A DNA stretch of 15,510 nt from an uncultured Deinococcales bacterium (GTDB taxonomy: Bacteria > Deinococcota > Deinococci > Deinococcales > JAAFIG01). How positions within the stretch are numbered: position 1 is the first letter of the stretch; every line of letters begins with the position of its first letter. The position numbers and the translations under genes were made by a program. Where the stretch lies: contig CAXTKV010000126.1 of the NCBI GenBank assembly GCA_964244895.1, forward strand, positions 1 to 15,510. The letters run 5' to 3'. This document shows positions 1,283 through 7,713 of the stretch, piece after piece. The notes below the pieces were generated by a model, which saw only the letters and a list, made by a program, of their open reading frames with translations, ran no database searches and was not told where the DNA came from.

Positions 1283-4200
1283 TTACGCCACGATCTGACG
1301 CAGGATGCTCGGGTCCTGAATCTGTTCGTCGCGCGCCAAGAGCAGGACTTTCGAGACGACCTCGGCGGTGCGCGGATCGTTGTCGGCGAACGGCAGGAAC
1401 ACGCGACCGCGTTGCTGCGAGGGCACGGCCACGATGCACACATAACCGCCCGGTTGCTGATGCACCGTGCCGCTGCCCAGGTGGACGGTGTAGCGGTTGA
1501 GTTTTCCTTGCACCAGCGCGTGCGAATCCTTGATGCTGACGTTCTCGAGCTTCAAGAGGGCGCTCGTTTCGCGCACCATCGCGGCGCGCATCTCGACGGT
1601 GCTGGCGCTGGCTTCCGGGTCGACGCCGCCGACGTGGGCGACGCTGACGATCAAGTCCACGTCGCGCATGACTTCAGAGAGCAATCGTGGCGGGATTGCC
1701 GTCAGTTCCAGGCGCTTCCAATCGCCTTTTCTGGTGAAGTACAGGTTTTCCAGCGTCGGCGCTTCGACCTCTGCGGGGGTCGTCCAGCCCTGGTTGCTCT
1801 CGAGCCAGGCGGTCACGCCCTCCGTGTGGAAGGTGCGGGATAAACCGTCCTCCATCCTCGAGACCCAACCGCGCTGCCCCAGGAGCGCCATGGCTTGCTT
1901 CGGGTTGACCTGATGACCCGCGTAACGGCTCGAGAAGACCTTGTCGGCGCGTTCGGCGGCGGTCAGCACGTATAACTCGCGGAAGACCTGCTTGAAGGGC
2001 TGCACGCGGTTCGCGTCGAAGCACTCCTGCTGCCAGGCGCTCCAGTTTTTTGCTCCCAAGAGATCGTGCGGGTGTGCGATCCGCAACTCGTCTTTGAGGC
2101 TCAGCTTCGTCTCGAGCTTCGCGCAATCGCGCAGGGCTTGTCCGCCTTTGGTGAGGTAGCCCAACCTGCCGGAATCCGCGACGAACACGATTTTCTCGAA
2201 CATCGCGCGCAACAACGGGTGCGCCCACAACGAACGCAATTCCTTGGCGGTGAACGCATCGCCGTGAACCATCGCGCGTTCCAGCGAAACCCGCATCCTG
2301 GACGCCTGCCGCTCGAGTTCCCGGCGGCGCTCCTGCAAGGCCAGCACGTCCTCGTCCTTCTTGAGCGCGGCGGGAACGGTCTTGAGGGGCTTCCCATTTT
2401 TTTCCACGCTGAATTCTGGTTTGCCCTCCGACGTGATTGAAAGCGCGAACCGCGTACCATCTTTATTCAGCGCGACCGGGCCACTGGAGAGGTCCGCGAC
2501 GGCTTTGAGTTCCATCGCCCAGGTCAACCGCAACGGATCGGGATAACCCGCCGTGTTGGCCAGGTTGACCATCCCGATGCGCGCCGCCAGGGATTCGCTC
2601 TCCTTGCGTTGTGAGCCGAACGCTTTGGAGCCGCGCAGGAATTCCTGAATCACCTCGAAGCGCCGCAGCACGGCAGCCTCGATCTCGAGCTGATCGGAAG
2701 AATCCAGCAACGGGATTAACCCGAGCGCCCGAACGCTGTCCTGGTGGCGTTTGGCGCGGATGCGTTCGATCACCTCCGATTGCTCTAAAACCCCTAGCAT
2801 CGCGTCCGCGAACTGTTTGGCGCGCGTGTGCCCCGTGCCGCCGGACGCGAACTTCGCGGCATCGTAGACCTTCGCCCAGCGCTGTGCGCCGAGTTTCTGG
2901 TGGACGCGTCTGAACCAGGCCACGTCCACCGCGCCGTCCAGCAAGTCCTGCGCGGAAAGCGGCGTCTGCTCGCTGATTTCCGCCTGCCAGCTTTCCAGCA
3001 CCTCGCCCTGAACGTGCCAGCCGCGATCCTTGGTGTGCGCGTGCAACCACCACATGGCCTGCGCCAGACCCTCCCAGCCCAACGCGTGCTCCACGAAGCG
3101 CGACCATTGCGGCGCGTACAAGCCCAGTTCCACCAGGCGTTGATCGGTGATGCGGGCTTCGTGGACGCGCTTCGCGAAATCTTCGGGCGTGTCGTCCGGT
3201 GCGGGGAAGGTCACGCGGATCAGGTGGCTGATCGTGTCGCCGCGACCCGTCACGCCCCAGCTCGAAATGTACCCACGCACGAAGTCCGTCTTGCCCAAGC
3301 CCGTCAGGAGCGACACCAGCGTTTCCGTGCCCTCCGTGTAGCGCACCGACAGGGCGGGTTTGGATGCCGCCGTCGGCAGGTCGCCGCGCGTGCGTTCGGT
3401 CTCGATGATGCGGCTTCGGACGCGGTTTACCAGCGGTTTTAATTGCGGGAATTTCTCGAGGAGCGCGTCCGGTTTGCGGGTCGTGAGCGCGTTCAACTCG
3501 CCGAAATGTCCGTCGTTGACGGATTTTGGATCGAGATTGCGCGCCCCGATCAACTGATCGAGCACGTCTGCGTCGGCAATTTCACCCGCGCTCCAGGTGC
3601 GCAAGGTCAGCTCGAGCGGCGAGAACTCGCGTACCGAACGCCCCGGCGTGTTGTGCGCGGCGTGCTTGAGATTCCACAAGCGCGCCGCCTGCTTTTCTGA
3701 TGCGTTGCCGATTCGGGTGTGCGCGCTTCCCAGCCACGATGACAGCCGTTCGTCCGAAGACCAGCGGCTCAAAAAAATTCGGTCGTTCGCGCGCGGGTCT
3801 CTCGCGTCGGGCGTTTCCTCGAGATCGATGTCGTCCAGCTCGAGATCGTCACCATCGGCATTCGTTGTGGGCGCTGGCCCGAGTTCTTTGTGCAGCACCT
3901 CCAAAGTGGGCAGGATTCTGGCCAGCGATTGCTCCGCCGCGTCCAGCGCGAAATCCTGCGCGCCATCCTGCGCGCCATCCGGCGCGTGCAGGGCGTTCAG
4001 CCAGGCCAGCACGACCCGAAGGTAAGGCGTTTGTTTGAACTCGATGCGCTTGCTCTTGCCGATCAGCTTTTCCAGCAGGTTCGTCTTCGCGCCACTCAAT
4101 TCATCGAGTACGTTCTGGACGATCTTTGGACGATATTCCGTTTGCCACGCGTAACGCTGCGGCCCCAGCACCGGCACGAGGCTCGCGGCGCGCAGCAGTT

Positions 4201-6229
4201 CGAAACCGTCCGCATCGCGCTGATTCTTGGGGCGGTTGGCGTACCAGTCTTCCCAGACCTCGCGCAACGGCAGGGGTTGCGTGGCTTCGTCGAGGGCTTT
4301 GCTCAAATCGGGCGCGTTGAATCGGGCGTTGGACAGGGGCGCCTCCTGTTCCTCGTCCGCCCAGTTCTTGAACTTCACGGGCGTCTGCGCGTGGCTGTCG
4401 ATCAGTGCGTCCAGCGACTTCAGGCACTCGAGCGCGGCGGGCGTGACGAGTTGCACCTTCTGCGTTTTTGGCGCTCTGGGTTTCGTCAATTTTTCCGGGT
4501 CGAACAGGCCCAGACCGTCGCGCAAGGTCGGCGTGTTCGTCTGACCGTCTTTGGCCTCGAGCGCCTTCAGCAGTTCATCGCCCGCCGCGCGCTGGTCGGC
4601 GGATTTTGCGTTGCTCAACCGTTCTGCGCTTTCCTGCACGACCGTTTCGGGTTGGCGAAGGAGCAGTTTGATCGCGCCCTGCCGCATGTCGGTGCGTTTG
4701 CGCGAGAGCAGTTCCTCGAGCGCGGTGACTTCTGGTGGTTCGAGGACTGTTTTGTGCTTCTCGAGGGCGTTGAAGGCGCTTCGACGGACGTATTCTCCGG
4801 CGTCACCGATGCTTTGCAGGATCGCGGCTCGGGTTTGCGCGTCCCACGGTGTGCGCTCCGCGATCCTGTCCAGCAGGCTCGAGCGCGTCCAGGTGCTGAG
4901 TTCCTTCCAGTACGGCAGCATCCGTTTCGGATCGCGTTCATTGATGGCTTGCATCATGGCCTGCGTGATGTTCTGCGGCGAGAGCGTCACGTTGGCCAGC
5001 CACGAGATGCCGGATGGCAAACTGATTTCCTTGGGGACGCGTGCCAGCAGGCGCTCGAAAATCTCAAAGACCTGGTCGTCGTTGTTCCAGGCGTTGCTCG
5101 AGAACGCGCGCGCGGCCACGCTCAGGTCGCTGTCCTCGAGCGCGGTGGTCAGGTGCGCGGCGGTCAGTGGTGGGTTCGACAGCAGCACCAGGAACGCGGT
5201 CGCGGTGAAACGAAGCTTCGCGTTGCCGTGCCCGAGCCAGCCCGACGCCAGGTTTGCGGATCGCTCCGCGTCCTCGGTGGCGATGCACCACAGCCACTGG
5301 AAGAGCGTGAGCGGATCGGGTTCCGCCTTCGGGTTCGCGGCGTGCTGCTCGCAGGTGGGGATCTGCTCGAGCCAGCCCGTCAGCTTCTCGAGCCCATCGC
5401 GCAGTTGCTTGGGCGTGGCCTCGAACCCTTCCCAGCCCATCATCATTTGCAGCGCTTGCACGCTGGAACTGAAGCGGATCAGGTCGTGTTCCAGGATCAG
5501 CTTGAGCATTCGTTTGAAGGCCGTCGGGTGCGCCTCGAACATCGCCTGGAAGATGCTCTGGCGCAGCCCTTCTTGGCGTTGGGCGGCCAGAAGGAGTTTT
5601 TCGATGAACGCCCAGCCTTCGGGTCTGGACGCCATCAGCAGGCTCTTGGTGACGTGATCGCCCATCATGCCGATGGCGTGTTCGTTCTTGCCGGACGCGA
5701 TCAGAATCTGGAGGATTTCCGCGTCGCCCGAATCGATCGCGGCGGCGAACAACGGGGCGAGCGCGTCGGAACCCCAACCCAGGTAGGCGGCGTGTTCGGC
5801 GTACCAGCGCAGGGGTTGATCGCGGTTCTCGGTGATGCGCCGCAGGTTCTCGAGCCATGCCAGAGCGGTCTCGTCCAGCGGCGCGTCGGAAGCCTTTTCT
5901 TTCAGTCGGAACGGTCTGGATTGGTACGCGTTCAGGTACGGTCTGGACTGTCGCACGGCGGCCCTGACCAACGGTGCGAAGCGTGGAAACCACGCGTCGA
6001 TCAGCGCGGCTTGTTGATCCGCCGGAAGCTCAGCCAGGTCGGTGCGCGCCTGGTTGATCTTCTGCCAGTCCACGGAGACGTTCTTTCCCGTCGCATCGCG
6101 CCCCATCAACATCAAAGCCCGCGCCCTGACGGGCTCCTTGAGCTTCACGACTCGAGCCACCAGCCGCTCTGGGCCATCCTCGAGGATGGTGGCTTTCAGG
6201 GCTTTCTCGGCCTGTTCTTTGCTGAGCAT
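1283..6229 (-). CDS. Large DUF4132 domain-containing protein (MolR/YehI-related) with HEAT/ARM-like helical repeats
   Basis: Long ORF. The C-terminal region contains RLERAMV..., IAHPHDL...W..WQ...RVQPFKQVFRELY, SSRYAGHQV, SEVMRDVDL.VSVA and Y.VHLGSG..., as typical of DUF4132 proteins. Start placed at ATG 6229, with AGGAG 7 nt upstream. Confidence 0.85.
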   Translation of the reverse strand: MLSKEQAEKALKATILEDGPERLVARVVKLKEPVRARALMLMGRDATGKNVSVDWQKINQARTDLAELPADQQAALIDAWFPRFAPLVRAAVRQSRPYLNAYQSRPFRLKEKASDAPLDETALAWLENLRRITENRDQPLRWYAEHAAYLGWGSDALAPLFAAAIDSGDAEILQILIASGKNEHAIGMMGDHVTKSLLMASRPEGWAFIEKLLLAAQRQEGLRQSIFQAMFEAHPTAFKRMLKLILEHDLIRFSSSVQALQMMMGWEGFEATPKQLRDGLEKLTGWLEQIPTCEQHAANPKAEPDPLTLFQWLWCIATEDAERSANLASGWLGHGNAKLRFTATAFLVLLSNPPLTAAHLTTALEDSDLSVAARAFSSNAWNNDDQVFEIFERLLARVPKEISLPSGISWLANVTLSPQNITQAMMQAINERDPKRMLPYWKELSTWTRSSLLDRIAERTPWDAQTRAAILQSIGDAGEYVRRSAFNALEKHKTVLEPPEVTALEELLSRKRTDMRQGAIKLLLRQPETVVQESAERLSNAKSADQRAAGDELLKALEAKDGQTNTPTLRDGLGLFDPEKLTKPRAPKTQKVQLVTPAALECLKSLDALIDSHAQTPVKFKNWADEEQEAPLSNARFNAPDLSKALDEATQPLPLREVWEDWYANRPKNQRDADGFELLRAASLVPVLGPQRYAWQTEYRPKIVQNVLDELSGAKTNLLEKLIGKSKRIEFKQTPYLRVVLAWLNALHAPDGAQDGAQDFALDAAEQSLARILPTLEVLHKELGPAPTTNADGDDLELDDIDLEETPDARDPRANDRIFLSRWSSDERLSSWLGSAHTRIGNASEKQAARLWNLKHAAHNTPGRSVREFSPLELTLRTWSAGEIADADVLDQLIGARNLDPKSVNDGHFGELNALTTRKPDALLEKFPQLKPLVNRVRSRIIETERTRGDLPTAASKPALSVRYTEGTETLVSLLTGLGKTDFVRGYISSWGVTGRGDTISHLIRVTFPAPDDTPEDFAKRVHEARITDQRLVELGLYAPQWSRFVEHALGWEGLAQAMWWLHAHTKDRGWHVQGEVLESWQAEISEQTPLSAQDLLDGAVDVAWFRRVHQKLGAQRWAKVYDAAKFASGGTGHTRAKQFADAMLGVLEQSEVIERIRAKRHQDSVRALGLIPLLDSSDQLEIEAAVLRRFEVIQEFLRGSKAFGSQRKESESLAARIGMVNLANTAGYPDPLRLTWAMELKAVADLSSGPVALNKDGTRFALSITSEGKPEFSVEKNGKPLKTVPAALKKDEDVLALQERRRELERQASRMRVSLERAMVHGDAFTAKELRSLWAHPLLRAMFEKIVFVADSGRLGYLTKGGQALRDCAKLETKLSLKDELRIAHPHDLLGAKNWSAWQQECFDANRVQPFKQVFRELYVLTAAERADKVFSSRYAGHQVNPKQAMALLGQRGWVSRMEDGLSRTFHTEGVTAWLESNQGWTTPAEVEAPTLENLYFTRKGDWKRLELTAIPPRLLSEVMRDVDLIVSVAHVGGVDPEASASTVEMRAAMVRETSALLKLENVSIKDSHALVQGKLNRYTVHLGSGTVHQQPGGYVCIVAVPSQQRGRVFLPFADNDPRTAEVVSKVLLLARDEQIQDPSILRQIVA
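3953..3986. repeat. In-frame 12-bp tandem repeat encoding DGAQDGAQD
   Basis: ATCCTGCGCGCC twice, plus a partial third copy. Confidence 0.7.
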
Positions 6230-6265
6230 GGCGCGTCTCCTGTCTCGAGGCACTATTTTCTAGAG

Positions 6266-6309
6266 ACACCGTCCAGCACACATATTCAATCTCGCGTCCC
6301 AGACGGTGT
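6266..6309. repeat. 44-bp palindromic element, copy 2 (opposite orientation to copy 1)
   Basis: ACACCGTCCAGCACACATATTCAATCTCGCGTCCCAGACGGTGT; its reverse complement aligns without gaps to copy 1. Confidence 0.85.
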
Positions 6310-6324
6310 TTTCGTGATTCTGGC

Positions 6325-6750
6325 TCAGCCGCCCGCCAGGGCCACCAATCGCAGGAACAGCACATCCATCTGCGGTCGGAACAGGATCGGTGCATCCAGG
6401 CTGGTGATCTGTTCGTTGCCGATGAAGACGTAATACAACCCGTCCTCGAAGGCCAACAGCGCCGTCTGGATGGCTTCGGCTGGGTTGATGTCCTGCTGGG
6501 ACTCGCGCCCCAGGGAGTCGATCTTGCCCGCTTCGATTCCGTCCTGGATTTGCCCTTCGGTCAGGACGCGCACCAGTCGGGCGTCGCGCTGGCGGTTGTG
6601 GAAGGCCTGGACTTCTTCCAGCACCACGCGGGTGATCAGGTCTCGCAGGTTGAGTTGCTGGTCGTACTCGATTTGGAGCGTCCAGGACGGGACGAGCGCG
6701 GCGCGGCGTCCGATCTGTTTGGCTTCCAGGGTGAAGCTGGTCGTGCGCAT
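6325..6750 (-). CDS. 141-aa hypothetical protein with ubiquitin-like (ThiS/MoaD beta-grasp-like) features and a C-terminal Gly-Gly
   Basis: GAGG ribosome-binding site 7 nt before ATG 6750. The C-terminus YYVFIGNEQITSLDAPILFRPQMDVLFLRLVALAGG resembles MoaD/ThiS tails. Co-oriented immediately upstream of the DUF4132 gene. Confidence 0.75.
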   Translation of the reverse strand: MRTTSFTLEAKQIGRRAALVPSWTLQIEYDQQLNLRDLITRVVLEEVQAFHNRQRDARLVRVLTEGQIQDGIEAGKIDSLGRESQQDINPAEAIQTALLAFEDGLYYVFIGNEQITSLDAPILFRPQMDVLFLRLVALAGG

Positions 6751-6794
6751 GGGTAAACCTCGCTCTGGTGTATTTGCGAACTCTGATTCCATGA

Positions 6795-6811
6795 TTATGT
6801 TTATAACATAA
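6795..6811. promoter_or_regulatory. Radiation/desiccation response motif (RDRM), DdrO operator
   Basis: TTATGTTTATAACATAA matches the 17-bp Deinococcus RDRM consensus as recalled (TYMYGYNNWNRRCRKRA) at every position. It lies within a perfect 10-bp inverted repeat (6792-6814), 44 bp upstream of the 6750 start. Confidence 0.8.
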
Positions 6812-7203
6812 TCAATTCCAGTTGTGTTGCCACCTCGAGAATTACCCGAGCCGAGCGCGACAACCCGCTGAACGACGCATTCAAACGAGTCTAAAACACC
6901 CCGGTCAGGGCGGCGTGGTTAATCCCTCGTCGGATCGGAAGTCATGCGCGAACAATCGCGATTCTCGAGCATTCCAGTTTTCAGACTGAAGCTCGAGAAA
7001 TCGTGACTGCCCGAAGGCGAATATGAGACGCCCTTAGCGGTGGCTCGAACAATCCTGAGCAGAACGAGAAATCCGACCTCGCGTGCTCGAGCCTCAACCC
7101 GTTGTCATCCCGAGAAGGCAAGAAGAATCTTTCGCCGCGACTCGGGCGCAGATACATCTCGCACGACGACGTTCTCGGTACCCGCGCTCGAGAACTGAAA
7201 TGT

Positions 7204-7713
7204 TCACCAGCCGGAACTGTTCGGCACGCCCTTGAACGGCCCGACGATATTTTTGGTGATCCAGCCGCCGTAAAACCCGCCCGGTTGCGGCGCGACGCGC
7301 TCACCGTCCACGAAGCAACCGTCGGTATCCAGAACCTGCATCCGACCCGCGTAGAAGGCCACGAAATTCTGGATCGGCCTGAACCCCGCCGTGGGATTCG
7401 GGTAGTACCAGGCCGCATCCCGAGCCACCGCGTCCCCGACGCGCACCGTGTAATACCCGGCACCGCCTTTCCACTCGCAGAAGCTCGAGTTCGATGATGC
7501 TTCCAGCGCGCCAACCGCGATGTCCTCTGGCGGAATGTAATAGACGGGCGGATGGGATGTCTCCAGGACGCGGTACCCGCGCACGGTATCCACAATTTTC
7601 ACGCCGTTCATGACGATCTCGAGGCGCTTCGGGGTGGTTTCCAGGCGCGGAGGGCGCGGGTAATCCCAGACGGATTCCTGGCCGGGTTCGGGATGGATCG
7701 GTTTCGGGCGCAT
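7204..7713 (-). CDS. DUF427 domain-containing protein
   Basis: Motifs QESVWDYPRPPRLE, VLETSHPPVYYIP, SFCEWKG.A.YY, AAWYYPNP and PQPGGFYGGWIT. Confidence 0.92.
   Translation of the reverse strand: MRPKPIHPEPGQESVWDYPRPPRLETTPKRLEIVMNGVKIVDTVRGYRVLETSHPPVYYIPPEDIAVGALEASSNSSFCEWKGGAGYYTVRVGDAVARDAAWYYPNPTAGFRPIQNFVAFYAGRMQVLDTDGCFVDGERVAPQPGGFYGGWITKNIVGPFKGVPNSSGW

Follow-up and report, generated by a model that had tools for sequence, protein, structure and literature searches.

A predicted DdrO operator before the Ubl-DUF4132 operon of an uncultured Deinococcus relative, and its conservation across two families

Introduction

The stretch of DNA analysed here (hereafter the window; 15,510 nucleotides) carries a short AT-rich palindrome before a two-gene operon that encodes a small ubiquitin-like (Ubl) protein and a giant DUF4132 protein, and it raises the question of whether this palindrome is an operator of DdrO, so that the operon would answer to the DNA-damage switch formed by the DdrO repressor and the IrrE protease. 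The window is contig C126 of an assembly of 328 contigs (5.12 Mb; 91% complete) from the sole member of its genus, within an uncultured family of 19 species in the Deinococcus order. Also in this order are a large genus, represented by 65 sampled species, and families whose genomes measure 2 Mb. A first-pass annotation had read the palindrome as an RDRM and had put the operon forward as a new, undescribed member of the regulon. In what follows we examine the palindrome, the operon and its products, the regulon of this genome, orthologous operons across the order and the published record, and we then weigh the DdrO reading against its rivals.

Throughout the text, sites are scored against the consensus TTMYGY-N5-RCRKAA, which we formulated ourselves; it agrees with the RDRMs given in Table 2 of PMC8533742 but does not derive from a published matrix. 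Genome positions were also ranked with a log-odds matrix built from 11 canonical sites, the window's site being left out. We use f1 for the family of the window and f3 for the Deinococcaceae. The comparison of orthologous operons covers the 5' regions of 45 loci (11 from f1, the window included, 30 from f3 and 4 from f2); one of them, L059, was dropped for want of a conserved start by pattern, which leaves 44 scored loci, and second copies or fragments in genomes G001, G012, G013 and G014 were left out.

The palindrome and its surroundings

The 23-bp perfect palindrome TGATTATGTTTATAACATAATCA occupies positions 6792-6814, with 10-nt arms, TGATTATGTT and AACATAATCA, flanking a TAT centre, as the first-pass annotation had described it; the RDRM core is the inner 17 bp, TTATGTTTATAACATAA (6795-6811; Table 1). 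The distance to the operon had been given as 44 bp, a figure that is correct for the core (44 bases from its edge at 6795 to the A of ATG 6750), the whole palindrome lying 41 bases from the same letter. Upstream of the palindrome, ~390 nt of non-coding DNA (6815-7203) separate it from a DUF427 gene (7204-7713). As this neighbour is also encoded on the minus strand and no gene diverges from the palindrome, the palindrome can serve only the Ubl-DUF4132 operon.

The local 300-nt sequence has a G+C content of 53-57%, against 62.7% for the genome. The string TTATGT-N5-ACATAA, with up to 2 mismatches, is matched once in the window, compared with a mean of 0.01 in 200 dinucleotide-preserving shuffles, and its perfect form occurs once in the 5.12 Mb of the genome, namely in the palindrome at hand. 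Base composition predicts 0.025 cores per genome (12 specified bases) and 1e-7 arm pairs (20 bases). Among 6-nt palindromes, CTCGAG is by far the most over-represented in this genome, with 21,883 occurrences against 1,711 expected (12.8-fold), 83 of them in the window, and CGGCCG, CCCGGG and ACTAGT are almost absent.

Table 1. Features of the Ubl-DUF4132 operon and its upstream region in the window
Feature	Position	Strand	Remarks
Giant gene	1283..6229	-	1,648 aa from ATG 6229; DUF5724, DUF4132, DUF7737
Intergenic spacer	6230..6324	-	95 nt; hairpin without T-run; AGGAG 8 nt before ATG 6229
Small gene	6325..6750	-	141 aa + stop; beta-grasp (ubiquitin/MoaD-like); ends ...LRLVALAGG; from homology and fold model
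Upstream in-frame ATG	6790..6792	-	candidate leaderless start giving 155 aa; 14-residue extension not conserved
Predicted DdrO operator (palindrome)	6792..6814	.	core 6795-6811; 0 mismatches to TTMYGY-N5-RCRKAA
Candidate extended -10 element TGnTATAAA	6800..6808	-	inside the RDRM; inferred from motif listing

The operon and its products

Both start codons were placed by comparison. In tblastn searches against 10 relatives of the same family, homology to the small gene starts at residues 15-17 of the longer open reading frame, which makes ATG 6750 the conserved start; the sequence GAGG lies 7 nt upstream of it. The longest open reading frame of the giant gene begins at GTG 6253 (1,656 aa), and the proteins of relatives begin at residues aligned with MLSKEQAEK, which sets the start at ATG 6229. 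The spacer between the two genes folds into a hairpin with a minimum free energy of -32.9 kcal/mol, which is not significant (z -1.66), and the two genes of relatives lie 0-4 nt apart or overlap, as against 95 nt in the window. The giant protein matches DUF5724 (E 4.2e-190), DUF4132 (3e-48) and DUF7737 (1.2e-36) in Pfam, and no other protein of this genome matches DUF4132.

The small protein has no Pfam or NCBIfam family, and NCBIfam likewise returned no match for the giant protein or for four small RDRM-linked proteins. Its structural model is a beta-grasp fold with a helical insertion (mean pLDDT 76.3), and its Foldseek matches, although weak (E 0.013-0.09), are to ubiquitin, UBL domains and the PI3K Ras-binding domain. 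Searching independently of Foldseek, VIA-align returned ubiquitin-type or related beta-grasp folds in all of its best 50 rows (Z 6.5-8.8; values under 8 are middling, and the argument rests on consistency across the rows); the top one among these is 5mpo_B, the small subunit of molybdopterin synthase (Z 8.8, rmsd 3.3, 80 residues). In an alignment of 44 orthologs of the small protein, G140 and G141 are invariant, with the stop codon directly after them. The label "Ubl", which the first-pass annotation had attached to the protein, thus holds on the strength of the modelled beta-grasp fold together with the invariant terminal Gly-Gly.

A Pfam scan of 16 open reading frames of the window found none of the E1 (ThiF/MoeB type), E2 or JAB families. 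PADLOC assigned 0 families to the two operon proteins, and an earlier hint at anti-phage defence accordingly finds no support. As a best guess, held with low confidence, the small beta-grasp protein with its Gly-Gly end and the giant DUF4132 protein may cooperate in a damage-related process.

DdrO, IrrE and the RDRM regulon of this genome

The reading of the palindrome as an RDRM had been made to depend on ddrO and irrE, and the genome has both. DdrO is a 129-aa HTH protein (C77:2266-2655), residues 1-128 of which match the structures 6jq1 (E 2.6e-66) and 6rnx (1.8e-64), with identity or similarity to a Deinococcus DdrO at nearly all of the 128 aligned positions; IrrE is a 248-aa HEITH protein of the Pfam family M78, residues 2-246 of which match 8slm (1.7e-63) and 3dte (1.3e-59). 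irrE is found ~640 nt downstream of ddrO on the same strand, and ddrO, a 121-aa open reading frame and irrE stand in a row within 1.8 kb (C77:2266-4040; L001:356-2130). In D. radiodurans, ddrO and irrE are unlinked.

Across the 5.12 Mb, the consensus TTMYGY-N5-RCRKAA has 22 perfect matches and 243 matches with at most 1 mismatch. With genes assigned by Pfam, perfect matches lie upstream of uvrD, gyrB, gyrA, uvrB, uvrC, ruvB, recQ and cinA, and further ones upstream of a PHP/dnaE-like gene, a divergent imuB-like/SRAP pair and a DinB_2 gene; the sites of ssb and ddrO carry one mismatch each, ddrO having RDRM-like sequences of its own at C77:2059 and C77:2107. Several G+C-rich perfect matches fall inside long open reading frames and look like chance. 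With the log-odds matrix, the site of the window scores 28.9 bits, which gives it rank 2 among all positions of the genome and is more than any training site reaches (recQ, the best of them, 25.1; ddrO 24.7), so that a comparison with the canonical regulon sites favours the RDRM assignment. Its place among the three strongest RDRMs of the genome argues that the Ubl-DUF4132 pair belongs to the core and not to the fringe of the damage response.

This regulon seems not to be identical to that of Deinococcus: a search for the DdrB family (PF12747) came up empty in the assembly, the control search having matched in D. radiodurans. With the assembly 91% complete, this does not establish that DdrB is missing. 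The SSB protein of this genome has two SSB-family (OB-fold) domains. The perfect RDRMs at C139:1275 and C328:1491 precede, respectively, the gene of an imuB-like Y-family polymerase, with a divergent SRAP gene, and the PHP/dnaE-like gene, the latter on a contig of only 2 kb; these sites suggest that mutagenic polymerases may be under the control of DdrO in this genome. A near-twin of the palindrome, TGATTATGTTTATAGCATAATC, ranks 3 with the matrix (C2:29007; L080) and precedes the gene of a 147-aa protein without a family match, and a 158-aa paralog of that protein (46% identical; C37:22645; L098) has an RDRM-like site of rank 23. The 147-aa protein has no match in solved structures, nor in 41 Deinococcaceae genomes in a search that had no positive control, and the two paralogs may represent a lineage-specific family of the RDR regulon.

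Conservation across orthologous operons

Matches to the giant protein were found in 53 of 251 genomes sampled from the order: 12 of 18 in f1, 35 of 70 in f3, 4 of 71 in f2 and 1 of 68 in f5, some of those in f3 being weak and confined to the DUF4132 region. The small gene is present in all 44 scored loci, and every small protein ends in Gly-Gly. Counted over the 350 nt upstream, the best site is free of mismatches at 20 loci and has 1 at 14, 2 at 5, 3 at 3 and 4 at 2, so that an RDRM with at most 1 mismatch stands before 34 of the 44 orthologous operons; 350 nt of background in the window's genome hold on average 0.0015 perfect sites and 0.017 sites with up to 1 mismatch. Within the Deinococcaceae, 27 of 29 loci have such a site, always at -55 to -96, and in the family of the window the site is perfect at 6 of 11 loci. 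Because these relatives are kin and not independent, we treat the counts as conservation and not as a statistical test. Looking before orthologous operons had been suggested at the first pass as a check, and it comes out in favour of the RDRM: the predicted site is conserved across two families.

The exceptions differ in kind. Locus L014 (G004, f1) belongs to a genome in which DdrO is present (88% identity), yet its best site within 350 nt has 4 mismatches. Locus L022 (G010) has no RDRM in the scored region, which falls short of the true promoter since a second Ubl-like gene lies upstream; the two small genes stand in tandem before the giant gene (L022:1170-2085) and their products end ...LKLVPLVGG and ...LRLVALAGG. 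In the sister genus g2, loci L008 and L010 have 2 mismatches at the position aligned with the RDRM of genus g4, and at L009 the aligned string, TTTAACTGTAAACATAA, is degenerate, its 1-mismatch match at -267 lying elsewhere.

In these sister genera (g4: L011, L012, L013, L016 and L020; g2: L008-L010) the site lies ~200 nt upstream of the small gene, where the RDRM abuts a TTGCAA/TTGACA-17-TATAAT promoter. A conserved hairpin with a T-run follows ~110 nt downstream of the RDRM, before the Ubl gene, and its stem shows compensatory changes (CATCGC/GCGGTG, CACTGC/GCAGTG and CACGGC/GCCGTG); the hairpin may be an attenuator or a small RNA under DdrO control. This layout is missing from the window, so that the architecture varies between genera, the sister genera having their site ~200 nt upstream with a terminator-like hairpin after it.

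The published D. radiodurans operon

The claim that the operon is a new and undescribed member of the regulon does not survive comparison with the literature. In Eugenie et al. (2021; Cells 10:2536, PMC8533742), DRA0165 appears in Table 2 as "putatively in operon with drA0166" and is assigned the RDRM GGTTATGCTATTTACATAAC at -83; this gene is supported there by ChIP-seq, transcriptome and motif, all three criteria of that study. As reported in the same article, drA0165-drA0166 shows DdrO occupancy in ChIP-seq and is up-regulated on depletion of DdrO, and DRA0166-V5 increases with mitomycin C in the wild type and not in the delta-irrE strain (Figure 8 legend and text); DRA0166 is stated to contain DUF4132, and DRA0165 is not marked in Table 2 as previously predicted (PMC8533742). 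In the text of Blanchard 2017, as available (PMC5552922), A0165 and A0166 have 0 occurrences.

At our locus L068 the published 20-nt string recurs letter for letter, 80 nt ahead of a gene orthologous to the small gene of the window, and this ties the operon of the window to the published drA0165-drA0166. The earlier statement of novelty therefore falls, the D. radiodurans ortholog having already been described as a DdrO target; the wiring of the operon into the regulon is already known, and the window is an orthologous confirming case in an uncultured sister family. There is nonetheless a conflict in the literature, as a 2022 paper that studied DR_A0165 under the name SEP068184, a peptide, states that it has no upstream RDRM and does not belong to the RDR regulon (PMC9650054). 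The conservation of the RDRM at 27 of 29 Deinococcaceae loci and at 6 of 11 loci of the window's family supports PMC8533742 against PMC9650054.

An alternative palindrome where DdrO was not found

Four f2 genomes have the operon without an RDRM (2-3 mismatches), and none of them has a DdrO match at E<=1e-5. Three low-G+C genomes of genus g27 (G103, G107 and G153) have the operon, no DdrO match and no RDRM; there, a different palindrome, ACTTAAAATTTAAGGT, overlaps a TATAAT ~25 nt before the Ubl gene. A palindrome of the same type precedes recA in all three g27 genomes with at most 1 mismatch and, with 2 mismatches, stands 18-30 nt before lexA-like genes in two of the three (the sites of this type come from L046-L048, L100, L105, L107 and other loci of these genomes). 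It also occurs before a glyoxalase/bleomycin-resistance-type gene and before the genes of a Cys-rich 129-aa protein, a 496-aa protein and an RNA ligase.

From its placement, ACTTAAAATTTAAGGT looks like a candidate SOS box of the g27 lineage, and the link between operon and damage response seems to persist under a different repressor. That another palindrome, shared with recA and lexA, takes this place where DdrO was not found suggests that damage induction itself is selected, whatever the repressor. This agrees with the case of E. coli MolR, which is stated in PMC8533742 to belong to the LexA regulon. One may go further and regard the Ubl + DUF4132 pair as an ancient damage-response module for which each lineage has wired its own switch (DdrO and the RDRM, an SOS-type palindrome, or LexA for MolR), a generalisation that we offer tentatively and think more probably wrong than right. 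Should it be true, the pair would carry out a damage-triggered ubiquitin-like or MoaD-like chemistry that is undescribed and missing from models of repair.

The proposed switch and its rivals

We consider it probable (about 0.88) that the palindrome is an RDRM through which DdrO holds the Ubl + DUF4132 operon off until damage-triggered cleavage by IrrE. If the published system is a guide, the RDRM would be occupied by a DdrO dimer that blocks RNA polymerase, the best -10-like element, TGnTATAAA, lying inside the motif; after DNA damage the IrrE protease would cleave DdrO, and the operon would be derepressed. For this genome we infer DdrO binding, promoter occlusion and damage induction. The first-pass reading of the site, as an RDRM before the operon in a genome with DdrO and IrrE, is thus supported, and the induction by DNA damage that it proposed is the best reading of an RDRM in such a genome.

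RDRMs are reported to lie at -50 to +20 relative to transcription starts (PMC8533742), and the core, 44 nt before the start codon, contains TGnTATAAA. Read on the minus strand, this element is followed after 7 nt by the in-frame ATG at 6792 and after 49 nt by the conserved start, ATG 6750. A consensus scan of 6200-7300 for sigma-70-type -35/-10 pairs returned 0 promoter-like sites, so that the -10 element inside the motif is our reading of the sequence; the same interval has one terminator-like site by consensus scan, on the wrong strand. The promoter proposed at the first pass, TTGATT and TGGAAT on the minus strand with 18 nt between them, is weak and was rejected, its -10 hexamer having no A at position 2; TGnTATAAA is preferred and is itself only a candidate. 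Support for promoter occlusion as the common logic comes from the sister genera, in which the RDRM abuts a clear promoter.

A repressor other than DdrO, whether the partner of another M78/COG2856 peptidase or a LexA-like protein, might own a palindrome that resembles an RDRM only in looks, and the genome does not want for candidates: M78-domain matches number 6, with 5 above the Pfam cut-off, there are 3 LexA_DNA_bind matches, and operators of the XRE type are often AT-rich palindromes. We nevertheless judge this very unlikely, as the site reaches rank 2 with a matrix built solely from canonical RDR sites, that of ddrO included, as the orthologous site of D. radiodurans is occupied by DdrO in ChIP-seq (PMC8533742), and as the genomes without a DdrO match lack the motif as well.

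The inverted repeat might instead act in RNA. It would then lie in a 5' leader whose promoter sits further upstream, and would fold there into a 10-bp AU-rich hairpin that affects stability or translation. The ~390 nt of non-coding DNA upstream would leave room for such a leader, and in the sister genera the same gene is preceded by a long structured leader. The repeat, however, is not followed by a T-run, Rfam gave no match at E<=1 over 6200-7300, and the consensus scan found no promoter upstream. Orthologs, moreover, keep the half-sites and vary the spacer, which is the pattern of a protein-binding site and not of a stem with compensatory changes, and we regard an RNA element as slighter in prospect even than another repressor. 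That the palindrome is a chance AT-rich repeat without function is least credible of all, given the expectation of 0.025 cores and 1e-7 arm pairs per genome and a site kept upstream of orthologs in two families. The RDRM bound by DdrO remains, for us, the preferred reading.

Significance

As a regulon call, the present case carries little weight, the ortholog having been shown to be a DdrO/IrrE target in 2021 (PMC8533742). What it adds is the conservation of the RDRM across two families, which bears on the no-RDRM statement of PMC9650054, and a lineage without a DdrO match in which an SOS-type box stands before the operon instead. Taken together, the conservation, the strength of the site and the alternative palindrome make the Ubl-DUF4132 chemistry a well-motivated target for knockouts and biochemistry.

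Comparison with known systems

The closest known system is drA0165-drA0166, which consists of the same gene pair: its small protein ends in LRLTALAGG, and the gene of a DUF4132 giant comes next. Between L068 and the window, the small proteins are 42% identical and the giant proteins 47% identical over residues 853-1654 (E 2.3e-216). Both systems have a 17-bp RDRM upstream, with DdrO and IrrE present. They differ in that the window's site, 44 nt from the start codon, has perfectly palindromic 10+10 arms, whereas the core of drA0165-drA0166 is TTATGCTATTTACATAA, at ~80 nt; the window, moreover, belongs to a different family of the order than D. radiodurans, has the 95-nt spacer between its genes and is known from sequence alone.

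Canonical RDRMs stand before ddrB, ssb, gyrA, uvrB, the recA operon and ddrO, as reported by Makarova in 2007 and by Blanchard 2017 (PMC5552922). These share motif and regulator with the site described here, and the window's genome has sites of the same kind before ssb, gyrA, gyrB, uvrB, uvrD, ruvB, recQ, cinA and ddrO; unlike the Ubl-DUF4132 operon, the canonical genes have known roles in repair. E. coli MolR, as described in PMC8533742, is likewise a DUF4132 protein under a DNA-damage repressor, differing in that the repressor is LexA and the architecture WGR + DUF4132.

Switches made of an XRE repressor and a COG2856 protease, such as ImmR-ImmA of ICEBs1, work by inactivation of the HTH repressor by the protease after damage. 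The Xre-family regulator of ICEBs1 (7t8i) is a weak match of the DdrO of this genome (E 2.2e-4). The logic is the same in the two systems, applied in ICEBs1 to the control of a mobile element and in DdrO-IrrE to a chromosomal repair regulon.
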